Below, in pieces: positions 1,232 to 5,743 of a DNA stretch of 64,000 nt. The position numbers and the translations under genes were made by a program. Each line of letters starts with the position of its first letter. Positions within the stretch are counted from its first letter, which is position 1. The notes beneath the pieces were generated by a model. The model did no database searches. It was not told where the DNA came from and worked only from the letters and a program-made list of their open reading frames with translations. This DNA comes from Bacillota bacterium (GTDB lineage Bacteria; Bacillota; JAAYKD01): assembly GCA_963666425.2 (NCBI GenBank), contig OY762825.2, positions 704,001-768,000 of the forward strand, given 5' to 3'.

Positions 1232-1620
1232 GCCGATTATTTATGTCGATATACGGTTTTTGCCAGGAGATTTCACCCGAAAAATCAATCAAATCGATGC
1301 GTGCGGAACGGTCAAGACCGTTCCCTACATTTTTCGAGTTGGTCAGATTATCAATTTATATCACTGACGAGATGCTTTTAAGAACGAAGCATACAAGTAT
1401 TTTACGAGATTACCGTAAAAAACCGCAGGTATCCTGCAGCGAAGCATCACCCCTCGGGGTGCAGCTAGCGGAAGGATACCGAGCGGTTTTTGTTATGGTT
1501 AGATTACCCCGATAGGCCAATCAAATCGATGCACGCGGAACGGTCAAGACCGTTCCCTACATTTTTCGAGTTGGTCAGATTATCAATTTACATCACTGAC
1601 GAGATGCTTTTTAGAACGAA

Positions 1621-1702
1621 GCATACAAGCAGATGCAATGCATACAAACAAATGCAATGCATACAAACAAATGCAATGCATACAAACAGATGCAATGCAT
1701 AC
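1621..1702. repeat. 19-bp VNTR (GCATACAAACAGATGCAAT), about 4.3 copies; about 3.3 copies at 5553-5615, degenerate at ~3744-3830, absent from the first unit
   Basis: GCATAC recurs at 1621, 1640, 1659, 1678 and 1697. Confidence 0.9.
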
Positions 1703-1861
1703 GAGCTGGGGTAAAGCATACAAGCATTTTACGAGATTACCGTAAAAAACCGCAGGTAACCTACAGCGAAGCATCACCCCTCGGGGTGCAGCTAGCGAAA
1801 GGACGCCGAGCGGTTTTTGTCATGCAAAGTTGAGCCTGATAGATTGAACAAATCGATACAT

Positions 1862-2083
1862 GCGGAACGGTCAAGACCGTTCCCTACCTTGCGAGTTGGT
1901 TGAAGTAACACCGCAATGTAATGAAGCTACGCCAAAACGGGTTACGCGGAACGGTCAAGACCGTTCCCTACCTTGCGAGTTGGTTGAAGTAACACCGCAG
2001 AACGATAGAGTTACGTCAGGACGGGGTACGCGGAACGGTCAAGACCGTTCCCTACCTTGCGAGTTGGTTGAAGTAACACCGCA
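1862..2083. repeat. 84-bp-period tandem repeat: REP plus a constant 28-bp tail, then a ~30-bp variable segment
   Basis: Unit starts at 1862, 1946 and 2030. Confidence 0.9.
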
Positions 2084-2274
2084 ATGTTGCGTGTAGGTTG
2101 AAATAACACCGCAATGTAATGAAGCTACGCCGGGAACGCAGGGACGCCAGGACTGGGCACGCGGAACGGTCAAGACCGTTCCCTCGTATATACTAATAGT
2201 GCCAAGGTAACTCATTTACAGGGTACAGGAAGCGAGCCAAAGCCACTCTTTAGGTATCCAAGGGGTTTGCCCTT

Positions 2275-2285
2275 TGTGGTATAAT
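2275..2285 (+). promoter_or_regulatory. Extended -10 promoter (TGTG-G-TATAAT) just upstream of the predicted bridge RNA loops; also present at 4083-4093
   Basis: Exact TRTGnTATAAT consensus. Confidence 0.6.
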
Positions 2286-2420
2286 TTTGTCAGGCAGAGG
2301 TCAACGTACCGTTCCCTGGGAATCGTTCCTGTGATGTAGAGTGTTGCCTCTGATCTGACAGAAATCTGCGTATTGGCTGGATAGGGTAAAATCCTTGTAT
2401 TTCACGCGAGGTTGCAGCTG
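2286..2420 (+). ncRNA. Predicted IS110 bridge RNA (target-binding loop plus donor-binding loop)
   Basis: The stem TGTCAG/CAGAGG/CAAC...GTTG/CCTCTG/CTGACA encloses ACCGTTCCCT (2308-17) and ATGTAG (2334-39), which match the target; a second stem CTGC...GCAG encloses TGGCT (2374-78) and GCGAG (2406-10), which match the donor junction. Confidence 0.8.
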
Positions 2421-2474
2421 TCAGCGTCAGAGAGATCATCCTTTGCCGCATTCCAGTTTGAGGAGTTGCTGTAA

Positions 2475-3647
2475 ATGATTACTTTTGGCGTAGACATCGG
2501 TAAATTCCGTCACCAGGCGATCGCGGTGGACGCCAGTGGTCAAGCGCTGGCTCCCTCGTTTGCATTTGAAAATTCCGAAGAGGGCTTTCAATTGTTTTTG
2601 CAGAAGGTCGCTCTTTACCAAAAGCAAGATGCAATTTGCGTCGGCATGGAAGCCACCGGTCATTACTGGCTGAATTTTTATTGTGTTTTACTCGATTTAG
2701 AAATTGAATTGCATGTGGTCAATCCCCTGCTCACCGACGCCATACGGCGCATGTCTGTCCGTAAAACCAAGACGGATACGGTGGATTGCGGTTATATCGC
2801 GGATGTGATCCGCATGGGACGTTATTCCGACGTAGCGGTACAAACGGAGGATGTCCAGAATTTACGCGAGTTATGCCGTTTCCGCTGTTCTCTGGTTGAT
2901 GAGATTGCAAAGCACAAAAACCATGTAATTGGCGTGCTGGATCATCTTTTTCCGGAATATCACAAGCTTTTTTCAGATATTTTCGGTAAAACTTCGCTGG
3001 AGTTGCTCAGCAAGTATCCGTCACCGGATGCCATTCTGAAGCTCGGCACAAAGCGGTTGGCTGATTTTTTAGCGAAGCATTCCCGCGGCAGTTTCGGTGA
3101 GGAAAAAGCGCTGGAGATCCGCAGCGCCTGCAAACACACAGTTGGGGTGAATAGAGCGAATGCTGCTCTATGCTTTGAATTACACCAAACCGTGGATCTG
3201 ATTCAATTCATTGAAGAACAGATTGACGCAATTGAGAATAAGATTGAGCAGATCTATTCCCAATGTGAATGCTATCTGGATACCATTATTGGTGTTGGAG
3301 TCACCTCGGCTGCGGTGATCTACTCGGAAATCGGCAATATTGATAATTTCGAAAATCCAAAGAAATTGGCGGCATTTGCCGGTATTGACCCTTCGATTAA
3401 GCAATCCGGTAATTTCACTTCAACGCACAACACGATGTCGAAGCGAGGCTCACCTTATCTGCGCAGAGCGCTCTGGAATGCTGCAACGGTTGCCGCGCAA
3501 AAAGATCCGGTCATGTCTGCTTTTTACCAGAAGAAACGCGACGAAGGAAAAGATTATATGACGGCAATTGGAGCTGTTACACATAAATTATGCAACATTG
3601 TTTTTGCTGTTTTAAGGGATAAAAAGCCTTATGTTCCCAGAATATAA
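2475..3647 (+). CDS. IS110 family recombinase/transposase
   Basis: DEDD residues GVD7, ME59ATG and KTD101TVD104; C-terminal LAAFAGIDP..QSG...SKRGSPYLRRAL. Confidence 0.97.
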   Translation: MITFGVDIGKFRHQAIAVDASGQALAPSFAFENSEEGFQLFLQKVALYQKQDAICVGMEATGHYWLNFYCVLLDLEIELHVVNPLLTDAIRRMSVRKTKTDTVDCGYIADVIRMGRYSDVAVQTEDVQNLRELCRFRCSLVDEIAKHKNHVIGVLDHLFPEYHKLFSDIFGKTSLELLSKYPSPDAILKLGTKRLADFLAKHSRGSFGEEKALEIRSACKHTVGVNRANAALCFELHQTVDLIQFIEEQIDAIENKIEQIYSQCECYLDTIIGVGVTSAAVIYSEIGNIDNFENPKKLAAFAGIDPSIKQSGNFTSTHNTMSKRGSPYLRRALWNAATVAAQKDPVMSAFYQKKRDEGKDYMTAIGAVTHKLCNIVFAVLRDKKPYVPRI

Positions 3648-4093
3648 TTTTCGTTTTGCCACTTGACGTTTGATAGCTGGCTACATTTTTTGAGTTGGTC
3701 AGATTATCAATTTATATCACTGACGAGATGCTTTTAAGAACGAAGTATACAAACAGATGCAATGTCATACGAGCAAGAGCAATGCATACAAACAGATGCA
3801 ATGCATACAAACAAGAGCAATGTCATACGAGCATTTTACGAGATTACCGTAAAAAACCGCAGGCATCCTGCAGCGAAGCATCACCCCTCGGGGTGCAGCT
3901 AGCGGAAGGATACCGAGCGGTTTTTGTCATGCAGAGTTGAGCCTGATAGATTGATCAAATCGATGCGTGCGGAACGGTCAAGACCGTTCCCTCGTATATA
4001 CTAGTAGTGCCAAGGTAACTCATTTACAGGGTACAGGAAGCGAGCCAAAGCCACTCTTTAAGTATCCAAGGGGTTTGCCCTTTGTGGTATAAT

Positions 4094-4228
4094 TTTGTCA
4101 GGCAGAGGTCAACGTACTGTTCCCTGGGAATCGTTCCTGTGATGTAGAGTGTTGCCTCTGATCTGACAGAAATCTGCGTATTGGCTGGATAGGGTAAAAT
4201 CCTTGTATTTCACGCGAGGTTGCAGCTG
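4094..4228 (+). ncRNA. Predicted bridge RNA, copy 2 (left target guide ACTGTTCCCT)
   Basis: Same as copy 1 except C>T at 4118. Confidence 0.78.
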
Positions 4229-4282
4229 TCAGCGTCAGAGAGATCATCCTTTGCCGCATTCCAGTTTGAGGAGTTGCTGTAA

Positions 4283-5455
4283 ATGATTACTTTTGGCGTA
4301 GACATCGGTAAATTCCGTCACCAGGCGATCGCGGTGGACGCCAGTGGTCAAGCGCTGGCTCCCTCGTTTGCATTTGAAAATTCCGAAGAGGGCTTTCAAT
4401 TGTTTTTGCAGAAGGTCGCTTTTTACCAAAAGCAAGATGCAATTTGCGTCGGCATGGAAGCCACCGGTCATTACTGGCTGAATTTTTATTGTGTTTTACT
4501 CGATTTAGGAATTGAATTGCATGTGGTCAATCCCCTGCTCACCGACGCCATACGGCGCATGTCTGTCCGTAAAACCAAGACGGATACGGTGGATTGCGGT
4601 TATATCGCGGATGTGATCCGCATGGGACGTTATTCCGACGTAGCGGTACAAACGGAGGATGTCCAGAATTTACGCGAGTTATGCCGTTTCCGCTGTTCTC
4701 TGGTTGATGAGATTGCAAAGCACAAAAACCATGTAATTGGCGTGCTGGATCACCTTTTTCCGGAATATCACAAGCTGTTTTCAGATATTTTCGGTAAAAC
4801 TTCGCTGGAGTTGCTCAGCAAGTATCCGTCACCGGATGCCATTCTGAAGCTCGGTACAAAGCGGTTGGCTGATTTTTTAGCGAAGCATTCCCGCGGCAGT
4901 TTCGGTGAGGAAAAAGCGCTCGAGATCCGCAGCGCCTGCAGACACACTGTTGGTGTGAATAGAGCGAACGCTGCTCTATGCTTTGAATTACACCAAACCG
5001 TGGATCTGATTCAATTCATTGAAGAACAGATTGACGCAATTGAGAATAAGATTGAGCAGATCTATTCCCAATGTGAATGCTATCTGGATACCATTATTGG
5101 TGTTGGAGTCACCTCGGCTGCGGTGATCTACTCGGAAATCGGCAATATTGATAATTTCGAAAATCCAAAGAAATTGGCGGCATTTGCCGGTATTGACCCT
5201 TCGATTAAGCAATCCGGTAATTTCACTTCAACGCACAACACGATGTCGAAGCGAGGCTCACCTTATCTGCGCAGAGCGCTCTGGAATGCCGCAACGGTTG
5301 CCGCGCAAAAAGATCCGGTCATGTCTGCTTTTTACCAGAAGAAACGCGACGAAGGAAAAGATTATATGACGGCAATTGGAGCTGTTACACATAAATTATG
5401 CAACATTGTTTTCGCTGTTTTAAGGGATAAAAAGCCTTATGTTCCCAGAATATAA
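4283..5455 (+). CDS. IS110 family recombinase/transposase, copy 2
   Basis: 390 aa with three amino-acid differences from copy 1 (L47F, E76G, and K>R in ACKH). Confidence 0.97.
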   Translation: MITFGVDIGKFRHQAIAVDASGQALAPSFAFENSEEGFQLFLQKVAFYQKQDAICVGMEATGHYWLNFYCVLLDLGIELHVVNPLLTDAIRRMSVRKTKTDTVDCGYIADVIRMGRYSDVAVQTEDVQNLRELCRFRCSLVDEIAKHKNHVIGVLDHLFPEYHKLFSDIFGKTSLELLSKYPSPDAILKLGTKRLADFLAKHSRGSFGEEKALEIRSACRHTVGVNRANAALCFELHQTVDLIQFIEEQIDAIENKIEQIYSQCECYLDTIIGVGVTSAAVIYSEIGNIDNFENPKKLAAFAGIDPSIKQSGNFTSTHNTMSKRGSPYLRRALWNAATVAAQKDPVMSAFYQKKRDEGKDYMTAIGAVTHKLCNIVFAVLRDKKPYVPRI

Positions 5456-5743
5456 TTTTCGTTTTGCCACTTGACGTTTGATAGCTGGCTACATTTTTCG
5501 AGTTGGTCAAATTATCAATTTACATCACTGACGAGATGCTTTTAAGAACGAAGCATACAAACAGATGCAATGCATACAAACAGATGCAATGCATACAAAC
5601 AGATGCAATGCATACGAGCTGGGGTAAAGCATACAAGCATTTTACGAGATTACCGTAAAAAACCGCAGGTATCCTGCAGCGAAGCATCACCCCTCGGGGT
5701 GCAGCTAGCGAAAGGACGCCGAGCGGTTTTTGTCGTGATGGGT

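Follow-up and report, generated by a model that had tools for sequence, protein, structure and literature searches.

A probable bridge RNA, programmed for host REP hairpins, in the left end of an IS110-group insertion sequence

Within the 64,000 nucleotides of DNA analysed here (hereafter the window), positions 2286-2424 very probably encode the bridge RNA that belongs to an intact insertion sequence of the IS110 group, located at 2185-3682; we put the probability of this reading at roughly 0.9. [quoted passage not shown] A preliminary description of the locus had proposed such an RNA of the IS110/IS621 type, and at the level of sequence comparison the proposal is supported by covariation of the guides, by covariation of the helices and by a leave-one-out covariance model. 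In particular, all four guide stretches change among relatives together with the DNA that each would be expected to read.

Results

The element and its copies

The host genome contains 10 full copies of the element at 99% identity, and the features of the two copies in the window are listed in Table 1. In all 10 copies, ...GTTCC-CT precedes the element, ...GCTGG-CT forms its end, and the right flank is AC[A/C]T. Copy 1 has a single CT at each of its junctions. Its ends, CGTATATAC... and ...GATAGCTGGCT, are visibly dissimilar when compared by eye, and no terminal inverted repeats are apparent in 2185-3682 from the same comparison. As the empty sites also contain one CT, insertion at the CT core is scarless and proceeds without target duplication. 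At the right end of the element, the motif TTGAC-N-ATAG[YY]GG(T)CT is found in 59 of 69 aligned loci.

Members of the IS1111 group carry a seekRNA downstream of the recombinase gene and have subterminal inverted repeats. The guide RNA 3′ of the recombinase gene that marks this group is not found here: the scaffold lies upstream of the gene, and the right non-coding end is just 35 nt long (3648-3682).

Table 1. Location of the features of the element and of its targets in the window.
Feature	Position	Strand	Details
Empty targets with CT-ACAT	1305-1330, 1537-1562	+	REP hairpin, CT, ACAT
Empty targets with CT-ACCT	1864, 1948, 2032	+	REP hairpin
Filled target, left half	2163-2184	+	REP-like hairpin GGAACGGTC-AAG-ACCGTTCC (2163-2182), CT core (2183-2184)
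IS110-family element, copy 1	2185-3682	+	1498 bp including the right-hand CT
TATATA	2187-2192	+	Left end; 16 nt after right-end TTGACG once the ends are joined
Extended -10-like word TGGTATAAT	2277-2285	+	1-9 nt before the scaffold
Target-binding loop domain	2295-2352	+	Stem 2295-2300/2347-2352 and 2302-2306/2342-2346, enclosing an internal loop and a hairpin
LTG ACCGTTCCCT	2308-2317	+	Same letters as 8 nt of left target (top strand) and the CT core; 10/10
Linker G2318 and hairpin GGAA-TCG-TTCC	2318-2330	+	Pairs 2319-2322/2326-2329
RTG ATGTAG	2334-2339	+	Reverse complement of CT-ACAT; 6/6
AG after the RTG	2340-2341	+	Place of the IS621 target-loop handshake guide, by analogy with PMC11208158
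Donor-binding loop domain	2355-2424	+	Basal helix CTGACAG 2355-2361/CTGTCAG 2418-2424; inner stem CTGC 2366-2369/GCAG 2414-2417
LDG, probable (family register)	2375-2380	+	GGCTGG against right-end AGCTGG (3675-3680), one G-T wobble
Donor-loop hairpin arms GGAT and ATCC	2379-2382, 2391-2394	+	Read in the sequence
RDG GCGAG	2406-2410	+	Pairs with CT-CGT, the core followed by left-end bases 2185-2187
Putative donor-loop handshake GT	2411-2412	+	By analogy with PMC11208158
Recombinase gene	2475-3647	+	390 aa; preceded by GAGGAG (2460-2465)
Right end	3663-3682	+	TTGACG 3663-3668, left donor TAGCTGG 3674-3680, CT core 3681-3682
Element copy 2	3993-5490	+	Behind the REP at 3971-3990
Parts of copy 2	4094-4233, 4283-5455	+	Scaffold (covariance model, 97.4 bits) and ORF, respectively; LTG ACTGTTCCCT

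The recombinase has both protein domains of the IS110 group, namely: a DEDD RuvC-like domain (PF01548; E 5.2e-40, profile positions 2-155 of 155) with its four acidic residues, and a Tnp domain (PF02371; E 8.2e-26) with its serine. D7, E59, D101, D104 and S311 occupy the catalytic positions in alignments to ISCro4 (PDB 9t56) and IS621 (PDB 8wt6). D7 aligns with the GID aspartate of ISCro4, while E59, D101 and D104 align with residues E62, D104 and D107 of the IS621 chain, presumably E60, D102 and D105 of the published numbering given two extra N-terminal residues in the chain. S311, which is part of QSG, aligns with the serine of the IS621 ESG at chain residue 243; under the same two-residue offset this would be the published S241. 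The 390-aa frame is open in all 10 copies, and their variable sites comprise 15 synonymous and 7 non-synonymous ones. Judging by frames and catalytic residues, the recombinase is likely to be intact, as had been described.

In a sister species of the same genus, one copy of the element was found. Relative to the consensus, its left end is unchanged (0 of 290 positions), while the coding sequence differs at 44 of 1173 positions and the third codon positions at 33 of 391; for the left end against the third positions, Fisher's test gives p = 1e-8.

The closest relatives of the element occur mostly in Bacillota assemblies, although a mobile element is a poor taxonomic guide. The host genome (98.49% complete) scores 302.7 bits with the type A RNase P model and 58.6 bits with the type B model, which is below the cut-off of 97, and contains no match to Spo0A_C or LpxC. 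These markers speak neither for nor against the Firmicute host that the preliminary description had supposed.

Filled and empty REP targets

In the REP-like hairpin at 2163-2182, the 3′ arm serves as the left target. The filled site reads ...GACCGTTCC-CT/CGTATATAC... on its left side, where CT occupies 2183-2184 and the element begins at 2185, and ...GATAGCTGG-CT/ACAT on its right side (CT 3681-3682). The window contains seven REP hairpins, all within 1305-3990. Two of them are filled (2163-2182 and 3971-3990) and five are empty, so that both kinds of site are indeed at hand in this stretch, as the preliminary description had it. Genome-wide, CT follows 131 hairpins of this type, and in 10 of these the element comes next. 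Empty sites that read AC[C/T]GTTCC-CT-AC[A/C]T number about 99, against 10 filled ones. The REP occurs as two alleles, ACCG (117 hairpins) and ACTG (12 hairpins); the 10 insertions occupy differing REP contexts and are found in both alleles.

In the assembled contigs of X3 and X4, position 2182 is joined to position 3681, one side of the joint being 21 nt. We considered this joint as a sign of excision and rejected it, because the many empty REPs predict the same joint.

The target-binding loop

In a bridge RNA as described in PMC11208160 and PMC11208158, the LTG has the same letters as the top strand across left target and core, and the RTG is the reverse complement of core and right target. 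The stretches assigned to the two guides here follow this rule. All of the sequence features named in the preliminary description (the LTG, the hairpin, ATGTAG, CTGC/GCAG, TTGGCT, GGAT/ATCC and GCGAG) were found where it had placed them, and the two matches on which its target-loop assignment depended, the LTG with left target and core and ATGTAG with CTACAT, are exact.

Such a combination is rarely produced by chance. When the 290-nt left end was shuffled 50,000 times with its dinucleotides preserved, seven shuffles had a match of at least 10 nt to the left flank that ends at the core, and none had an LTG together with an RTG (the latter being a complement of at least 6 nt of core and right flank within 40 nt).

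The perfect LTG match is peculiar to this copy and is due to C2310, since the other nine copies in the genome and the sister-species copy have T at this position. Seven of the nine U-guide copies reside in ACCG sites, where pairing therefore requires a wobble. For the RTG, the GTAG portion (core plus two) fits all 10 insertion sites and the AT extension fits seven; the three insertions that mismatch the extension are at ACCT sites.

The AG that follows the RTG is predicted to be unable to pair with the donor of this copy, which has G at both position 7 and position 6. Right ends of relatives have a T before CT in every listed row except those of the window and of one other locus (L012).

Guide and flank covariation among relatives

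To follow the guides beyond this genome, relatives were collected at about 55-60 diverse loci with 44-64% protein identity. The LTG agrees with the left flank at 4.98 of 8 positions on average over 55 non-redundant pairs, against 3.71 ± 0.14 when permuted, and the RTG agrees with the right flank at 3.64 of 6 positions over 56 pairs, against 2.00 ± 0.14. In neither case did any of 5000 permutations score as high, so that the proposed check of guides against insertion sites among homologous left ends came out in favour of the assignment. Directly after the core, agreement is found in 93% of pairs at the first base (45% expected) and in 86% at the second (33% expected). The boundary-finding patterns missed 10 of the 69 loci per side. 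Some of the rows (e.g. L027, L042 and L053) are mis-registered or mis-bounded and were retained, which lowers the observed covariation scores. Both target-loop guides thus covary with the insertion sites across relatives.

The donor-binding loop

The basal helix of the donor-binding domain has at least 5 bp in 65 of 65 relatives (mean 8.0, compared to 5.8 ± 0.15 permuted). Its inner stem is paired in 97.3% of cells, with compensatory changes at four of four pairs.

The preliminary description had placed the LDG at 2373-2378, reading TTGGCT against CTGGCT of the right end, and had itself called its donor-loop assignment the weaker one. This match exists, and from this copy alone the two registers are indistinguishable. 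In relatives, the two pyrimidines of an AG[YY]GG block are the same in the RNA as in the right end at 59 of 59 loci (CT in 43, TT in 10 and CC in 6), from which the LDG is probably at 2375-2380, that is, shifted by 2 nt.

On the other side of the loop, the assignment of GCGAG as right donor guide (RDG) is borne out. At 51 of 59 loci, the three positions before AG are identical to the opening three bases of the left end (CGT in 38, TGT in 8 and ACT in 5), and the wobble position is the sole difference at three further loci (one GCGAG row and two GCTAG rows). The window copy is not among these 59 loci, because the boundary pattern missed its own left end. In the window, the wobble falls at donor position 12, where G2406 is opposite T. 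Once strands are exchanged, G2411, in the adjacent GT, could pair with C2182, which is target position 7, by analogy with IS621. Overall, the donor-loop guides match the element's own ends and covary with the ends of relatives.

Fold and conserved helices

The MFE fold of 2280-2425 contains a long stem that encloses an internal loop and a hairpin (z = -2.0), while that of the whole left end has z = -1.5. Folding energy alone is weak evidence in this case, because 7 of 200 shuffles fold as well as 2280-2425. Nevertheless, the left non-coding end contains the expected two-loop layout, namely two stem-enclosed internal loops with a hairpin each, as anticipated from the earlier inspection.

The long stem TGTCAG...CTGACA of the preliminary description stands in part. 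The fold does show a stem there, but its outer part is not the pairing that relatives keep. CTGACAG at 2355-2361 has two competing partners, the upstream TGTCAG and CTGTCAG at 2418-2424. The helix kept in relatives is that with the downstream partner, whereas the upstream helix reaches at least 5 bp in 42 of 65 loci. The outer nine pairs of the proposed stem are unpaired in most relative rows, which is partly misalignment and partly the relatives' use of the downstream partner. Within the target domain, columns 18-21 and 65-68 of the stem show compensatory changes, while columns 10-15 and 69-74 are mostly invariant. The loop hairpin (helix 2) is paired in 91.9% of cells of relatives, and all four of its pairs change on both sides.

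RNAalifold on a MAFFT alignment recovers just 12 pairs, every one of which has compensatory changes. The covariation score of the 32-pair structure is 0.416, compared to 0.216 ± 0.008 when shuffled (none of 500 as high) and 0.107-0.165 when the partners are slid. A leave-one-out covariance model built from 64 relatives matches 2286-2425 (96.5 bits) and 4094-4233 at full length, and gives no third match in the whole 64-kb window. Searching Rfam release 15 with E up to 1 gave no match on the scaffold and two chance-level matches elsewhere.

Candidate promoters and RNA contigs

In the circle, TTGACG of the right end would be spaced 16 nt from TATATA of the left end, and we read the two on this account as the putative -35 and -10 halves of a junction promoter. 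Relatives have TTGAC[T/A]-17 nt-TATAAT across the equivalent junction, and a junction promoter is described for IS621 in the accessible part of PMC11208160. The extended -10-like word TGGTATAAT might conceivably be an internal promoter. A scan for two-hexamer consensus promoters gave no + strand site before the scaffold, and for this reason the internal promoter stays a weak idea. [G/T]ATAAT or TACAAT words are seen by eye at the matching place in many rows of relatives.

In a run recorded as RNA (X1), contigs cover 2161-2371 and 2403-2669 at low depth, and the library may contain DNA; the first of these contigs crosses the left junction into the REP flank. All data of this kind (X1-X4, of which X2 is a doubtful run) are assembled contigs, in which starts, ends and strand are not visible. 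We draw no conclusion from the covered or the uncovered parts.

Discussion

By analogy with IS621, the element would leave as a circle with the joint GATAGCTGG-CT-CGTATA, the junction would build the promoter TTGACG-16 nt-TATATA from which the left end is transcribed, and a tetramer of the DEDD/Ser recombinase would bind the bridge RNA. In an empty REP, the target loop is predicted to pair with the bottom strand on the left side of CT and with the top strand on its right side, and the donor loop likewise on the circle junction. Strand exchange at CT would set the element after ...ACCGTTCC-CT without duplication. The ancestral guide has U at LTG position 3, able to form a wobble with ACCG and a Watson-Crick pair with ACTG; the copy studied here has a derived C at this position, fitting the major allele (ACCG) only.

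It could be argued that the left end serves the recombinase gene solely as leader and promoter region, that its REP likeness is a captured fragment or chance, and that the protein picks the target. The site specificity of the IS110 family has long been attributed to the protein, the left end has promoter-like words at 2187-2192 and 2277-2285, and the guide resembles the arm of an abundant genomic repeat, with 190 matches in the genome at up to 2 mismatches. We regard this explanation as very improbable, given that the same places of the scaffold hold matching letters in relatives whose insertion sites are quite different, which a captured REP fragment of this genome cannot explain. It is further opposed by the absence of an LTG-RTG pair among the shuffles, by the compensatory changes that keep the helices, and by IS621, in which specificity is set by the RNA (PMC11208160, accessible text). 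A genuine bridge-RNA element could also be immobile, its copies being relics kept by drift or co-opted, in which case neither "intact" nor "tool candidate" would be implied. The copies differ from copy 1 by 9-15 bases and form a few sub-lineages, which speaks against a very recent burst; the sister species has yielded just one copy; and the target-loop handshake seen in relatives appears to be lost here, as no T precedes CT in the right end. Nonetheless, immobility seems unlikely to us when all 10 frames are open with 15 synonymous against 7 non-synonymous variable sites, none of the catalytic residues is missing, the left end has stayed identical between species while 33 of 391 third positions changed, and the 10 insertions are spread over different REP contexts and both alleles.

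A further alternative concerns the RNA product rather than the element. The main product might be a short RNA that starts from the internal -10 at 2277-2285 and holds the target loop only, direct strand transfer being favoured over a circle and the two partners of CTGACAG serving as a switch. We consider this rather doubtful. A target-loop-only RNA does make up 90.4% of the RNA bound by CazIS110-1 and supports one transfer step there, the extended -10-like word is directly before the scaffold in our element, and CTGACAG does have two possible partners. On the other hand, complete transposition of CazIS110-1 needs the full-length RNA (both points from the accessible text of 10.1101/2025.10.25.684509), the promoter scan makes no call at 2277-2285, and the upstream helix is not general among relatives. 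A joint reading, to which we give little credence, would combine such a conformational switch with natural tuning of the guide, U serving both alleles and C being a specialist. In that case, the duplicated TGTCAG words would let CTGACAG close either the target or the donor domain, and the switch would decide between target-loop-only and full bridge RNA and hence between the two transposition routes proposed for CazIS110-1.

The element offers a clean natural example of such a system, with 10 filled and about 99 empty sites, two target alleles and two guide alleles in one genome, a second copy in a sister species and some 60 relatives whose guides are readable against their own flanks. It lends itself well to testing how far wobbles and mismatches are tolerated and what RTG length, the target-adjacent hairpin and loss of the handshake contribute, and adds one further orthologue to tool screens; the known mechanism of bridge recombinases is unchanged by it.

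Comparison with known systems

The closest parallel is IS621 of Escherichia coli (Durrant et al. 2024; Hiraizumi et al. 2024; PDB 8wt6). Both proteins have the same two recombinase domains with DEDD and Ser aligned. As far as IS621 is described in the accessible text, it likewise has the RNA in the left end with the target loop followed by the donor loop, a CT core, a REP target, the same LTG/RTG strand logic, and the -35 in the right end with the -10 in the left end, as the putative promoter halves are placed here. That text (PMC11208158) also gives a 1-nt linker (U59) between LTG and loop hairpin, a wobble of G161 with dT12 and a handshake by G166; the element here similarly has a G-T wobble at donor position 12 and a donor-loop handshake G that would face target C7.

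The differences from IS621 are considerable. The protein similarity is remote (E 1.7e-19), with just about 140 C-terminal residues well aligned, and the protein has 390 aa as compared to a chain of 328 aa. The LTG is 10 nt instead of 9 and the RTG 6 nt instead of the 4 given in the accessible text. In addition, the left end is about 100 nt longer before the target loop, the LDG in its family register does not read the core, the target-loop handshake seemingly cannot form, and the element has another REP and another host. Among solved structures, the transposase of 9t56, named ISCro4 by its depositors, matches best; it too is remote (E 1.1e-19), and its N-terminal alignment spans the first catalytic Asp.

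Caloranaerobacter azorensis belongs to the phylum Bacillota. Its element CazIS110-1 (10.1101/2025.10.25.684509) is likewise a multi-copy IS110 element of an anaerobe, with 10 genomic copies. The accessible part of that report describes a two-loop bridge RNA of about 170 nt and experimental activity with protein and RNA alone, whereas the element here is known from sequence. We liken the two by description and not by sequence, and the same part of the report does not state that the CazIS110-1 target is a REP.

ISPpu10 and ISPpu9 of Pseudomonas putida, both from Proteobacteria, are described in the accessible text of 10.64898/2026.03.19.712850 and PMC12288879 as using one conserved intergenic repeat with a stem-loop 5′ of the base-paired target. 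In a similar way, the left target here is supplied by the 3′ arm of a hairpin that adjoins the core on its 5′ side. Targeting of Shine-Dalgarno sequences by bridge RNAs was not found among titles and abstract openings of the IS110 papers surveyed.

Thousands of IS110 elements of this kind have been catalogued, REP targeting is already known, and CazIS110-1 has been reconstituted. The element is accordingly a further example of the documented IS621-type bridge recombinases rather than a new kind of system.

The element and its host genome

The 390-aa protein of the insertion sequence is an IS110-family recombinase by two Pfam domains, namely DEDD_Tnp_IS110 (E 5.2e-40) and Transposase_20 (E 8.2e-26), and among solved structures it best matches the recombinases of ISCro4 and IS621 (E about 1e-19). 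The catalytic positions of these alignments are occupied by D7, E59, D101, D104 and S311, the serine of QSG; we inferred that residue numbers of the IS621 PDB chain run 2 ahead of those in the paper. The host genome carries 10 full copies with 99% identity, and the frame is open in all 10, in keeping with the earlier view of an intact recombinase. Their 27 variable sites comprise 5 non-coding, 15 synonymous and 7 non-synonymous ones. One copy (G000:C1:92799-94295) has A for G at the equivalent of position 2417, which breaks the pair C2366-G2417 that closes the donor-loop stem. An 83-bp fragment outside the window (G000:C1:1593457-1593539), 86% identical to element positions 5-85 and on the opposite strand to a full copy some 90 bp away, may be a solo left-end remnant.

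The host genome (98.49% completeness, 6.85% contamination, 47% G+C) contains a type A RNase P RNA (302.7 bits), and a search of it found no Spo0A_C or LpxC match.

Features of the element and its surroundings (window coordinates; LTG/RTG, left/right target guide; LDG/RDG, left/right donor guide)
Feature	Position	Remark
Element, copy 1	2185-3682	1498 bp
Element, copy 2	3993-5490
Recombinase ORF	2475-3647 (copy 1), 4283-5455 (copy 2)	one frame per copy, 390 aa each
Extended -10-like word	2277-2285	directly ahead of scaffold
LTG	2308-2317	ACCGTTCCCT, i.e. 8 bases left of core + CT
Linker	G2318	between LTG and hairpin
Loop hairpin GGAA-TCG-TTCC	2319-2329	between LTG and RTG
RTG ATGTAG	2334-2339	reverse complement of CT-ACAT
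LDG, family register	2375-2380	GGCTGG vs AGCTGG, then AU
RDG GCGAG	2406-2410	G-T wobble at donor position 12
Putative junction promoter halves	TTGACG 3663-3668; TATATA 2187-2192	would be 16 nt apart across joined ends
Covariance model matches	2286-2425; 4094-4233	96.5 and 97.4 bits, both full length
19-nt tandem repeats, unit GCATACAAACAGATGCAAT	1621-1702, 3747-3828, 5553-5615	3-4 copies
84-nt tandem array	1862-2084	2.7 copies, one REP in each unit
G+C-rich repeat ...CCGCAGG-TATC-CTGCAGCGAAGCATCACCCCTCGGGGTGCAGC...CGAGCGGTTTTTGT	about 1420-1495, 1745-1820, 3855-3930, 5655-5735	nested inverted repeats + T-run

Filled and empty REP sites

Directly left of all 10 copies lies the 20-nt hairpin GGAAC[G/A]GTC-AAG-AC[C/T]GTTCC, followed by CT; the right end of every copy reads ...GATAGCTGG-CT, and the next bases are ACAT in 7 and ACCT in 3. 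The hairpin is a REP-like repeat. Genome-wide, 131 copies have CT directly after them, followed by ACAT (64), ACCT (34), ACAA (12) or the element itself (10). The major allele, ACCG, accounts for 117 hairpins and the minor one, ACTG, for 12, which hold 2 of the 10 insertions. Filled and empty sites are thus both at hand, as had been proposed: the window has 7 hairpins, 2 filled and 5 empty.

Among the 31 genomes searched, the repeat and the element were found in the host and one same-genus genome alone. Allowing at most 2 mismatches, the hairpin has 190 matches in the host, 73 in this sister species and none in the 29 other relatives searched. The sister species has one element copy, 97% identical, and further REP alleles, namely ACCATTCC and ACCGCTCC.

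The REPs of the window belong to larger composite repeats. The 19-nt tandem repeats lie about 60-65 nt right of REP targets. For a G+C-rich repeat, which by its sequence looks like a terminator or else a structured RNA of small size, an Rfam search gave no credible match.

Predicted bridge RNA of the left end

The preliminary description had read the left end as a bridge RNA with a REP-directed target loop. This finding is real and its interpretation correct in the main points: on inspection of the sequence, every word that it named is in place, and when the 290-nt left end was shuffled 50,000 times with dinucleotides preserved, no case arose of a 10-nt flank match with a 6-nt match to the reverse complement of core plus right flank within 40 nt. 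The GTAG part of the RTG fits all 10 insertion sites and its AT extension 7 of them. Within the LTG, C2310 is unique to copy 1 of the window; the 9 other copies, the sister-species copy and contigs of three runs have T. The RNA-library cover of the locus consists of low-depth contigs that are possibly DNA. U at this position pairs with both REP alleles, C with the major allele only. A promoter scan made no call at the -10-like word ahead of the scaffold. The predicted fold has the stem-loop-stem layout, but since its energy is just mildly below that of shuffles, the case is not based on folding.

Covariation of guides in relatives

A single scan of species-representative genomes yielded 80 loci with proteins 44-64% identical to that of the window. 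Of these loci, 68 contained the anchor word and extended far enough upstream; they and the window are alignable across the entire scaffold. Boundaries were set by end words (left, CT then [C/T/A][G/C]TAT...; right, TTGAC...ATAG[YY]GG(T)CT), located in 59/69 loci per side. Both target guides covary with their own insertion sites. For the LTG (8 positions before the core), agreement with the left flank averages 4.98/8 over 55 non-redundant pairs, compared to 3.71 +/- 0.14 when re-paired at random; for the RTG and right flank, it is 3.64/6 vs. 2.00 +/- 0.14. Neither value was reached in 5000 permutations. At the first two bases past the core, the RTG agrees in 93% and 86% of pairs, where 45% and 33% are expected. 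As clearly mis-bounded rows were retained, these figures are conservative.

The donor loop, as first assigned, stands in its right half and is probably out of register in its left half. In 51/59 loci, the RDG triplet before AG is complementary to the triplet with which the left end begins (ACGAG with CGT, ACAAG with TGT, and AGTAG with ACT), and 3 further loci are off by just a G opposite T. For the LDG, it is the family register of the table that follows the right end among relatives, and the pyrimidine pair of AG[YY]GG agrees with the right end in 59/59 loci (CT 43, TT 10, CC 6). The LDG proposed earlier, TTGGCT, lies 2 nt upstream of this register and scores as well only because the window copy reads TGGCTGG; two relatives' loci, L012 and L019, speak for the family register.

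Among 50 non-redundant relatives, 39 have an opposite-strand Shine-Dalgarno-like word (AGGAG and variants) that adjoins the left end just beyond the CT core, and 26 have a start codon with at least 60 open codons 8-17 nt further on. Their LTGs end in ..CCTCCT. The clade thus seems to be programmed to insert just upstream of the ribosome-binding sites of particular genes, from which the window element would have switched to REP. IS900-type members are known to insert close to ribosome-binding sites.

Structure and constraint

In a 65-sequence alignment, RNAalifold predicts 12 pairs, all with compensatory changes. A 32-pair structure, hand-written from the window fold, has a covariation score of 0.416. 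Shuffles score 0.216 +/- 0.008, with none of 500 reaching the observed value, and sliding the partners gives 0.107-0.165. The loop hairpin and the donor-loop stem are paired in 91.9% and 97.3% of cells, respectively, each with changes on both sides in 4/4 pairs. A covariance model built from 64 relatives only matches both element copies, with no further match in the 64-kb window. Between the sister-species copy and the consensus of the 10 copies, 0/290 left-end and 44/1173 coding positions differ. Third codon positions differ at 33/391 (Fisher p = 1e-8 vs. the left end), so the left end, which is non-coding, is held more strictly than synonymous sites.

CTGACAG (2355-2361) has two possible partners, namely an upstream one in the long stem described earlier and CTGTCAG (2418-2424) downstream. 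The downstream helix has at least 5 bp in 65/65 loci (mean 8.0 vs. 5.8 permuted), and the upstream one in 42/65 (mean 5.7 vs. 4.7). Since the downstream helix is general among loci, the RNA probably extends to at least 2424. The helices with 2289-2294 and 2418-2424 are mutually exclusive, and L012 has the same choice; this may be a switch or may simply result from the TGTCAG word being repeated.

Comparison with known bridge-RNA systems

According to two IS621 reports (PMC11208160, PMC11208158), both target guides take in the core. A 9-nt LTG leads through a single-base linker to a stem loop, the RTG has 4 nt and is extendable to 7, each right guide has two handshake positions after it, and a promoter is re-formed across the joined ends. 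By sequence, the window element appears to fit these rules. Its RDG wobble is at the position of G161-dT12 in IS621, and G2411 is opposite target C7, as is G166 in IS621. The target-loop handshake (A2340) cannot form, because donor position 7 is G, not T. The window and L012 right ends read GCTGG-CT, and the other right ends found GCTGG-T-CT.

IS110 elements that target REPs and have bridge RNAs are already established, namely IS621 and ISPpu10 (10.64898/2026.03.19.712850); in vitro reconstitution has been achieved for an IS110 element of Caloranaerobacter azorensis (10.1101/2025.10.25.684509). The window element belongs to a known class, of which it is an ordinary and well-preserved example; the locus brings no new mechanism, and its value is that of a natural series in which sites are filled or empty and guide and target both occur as different alleles.
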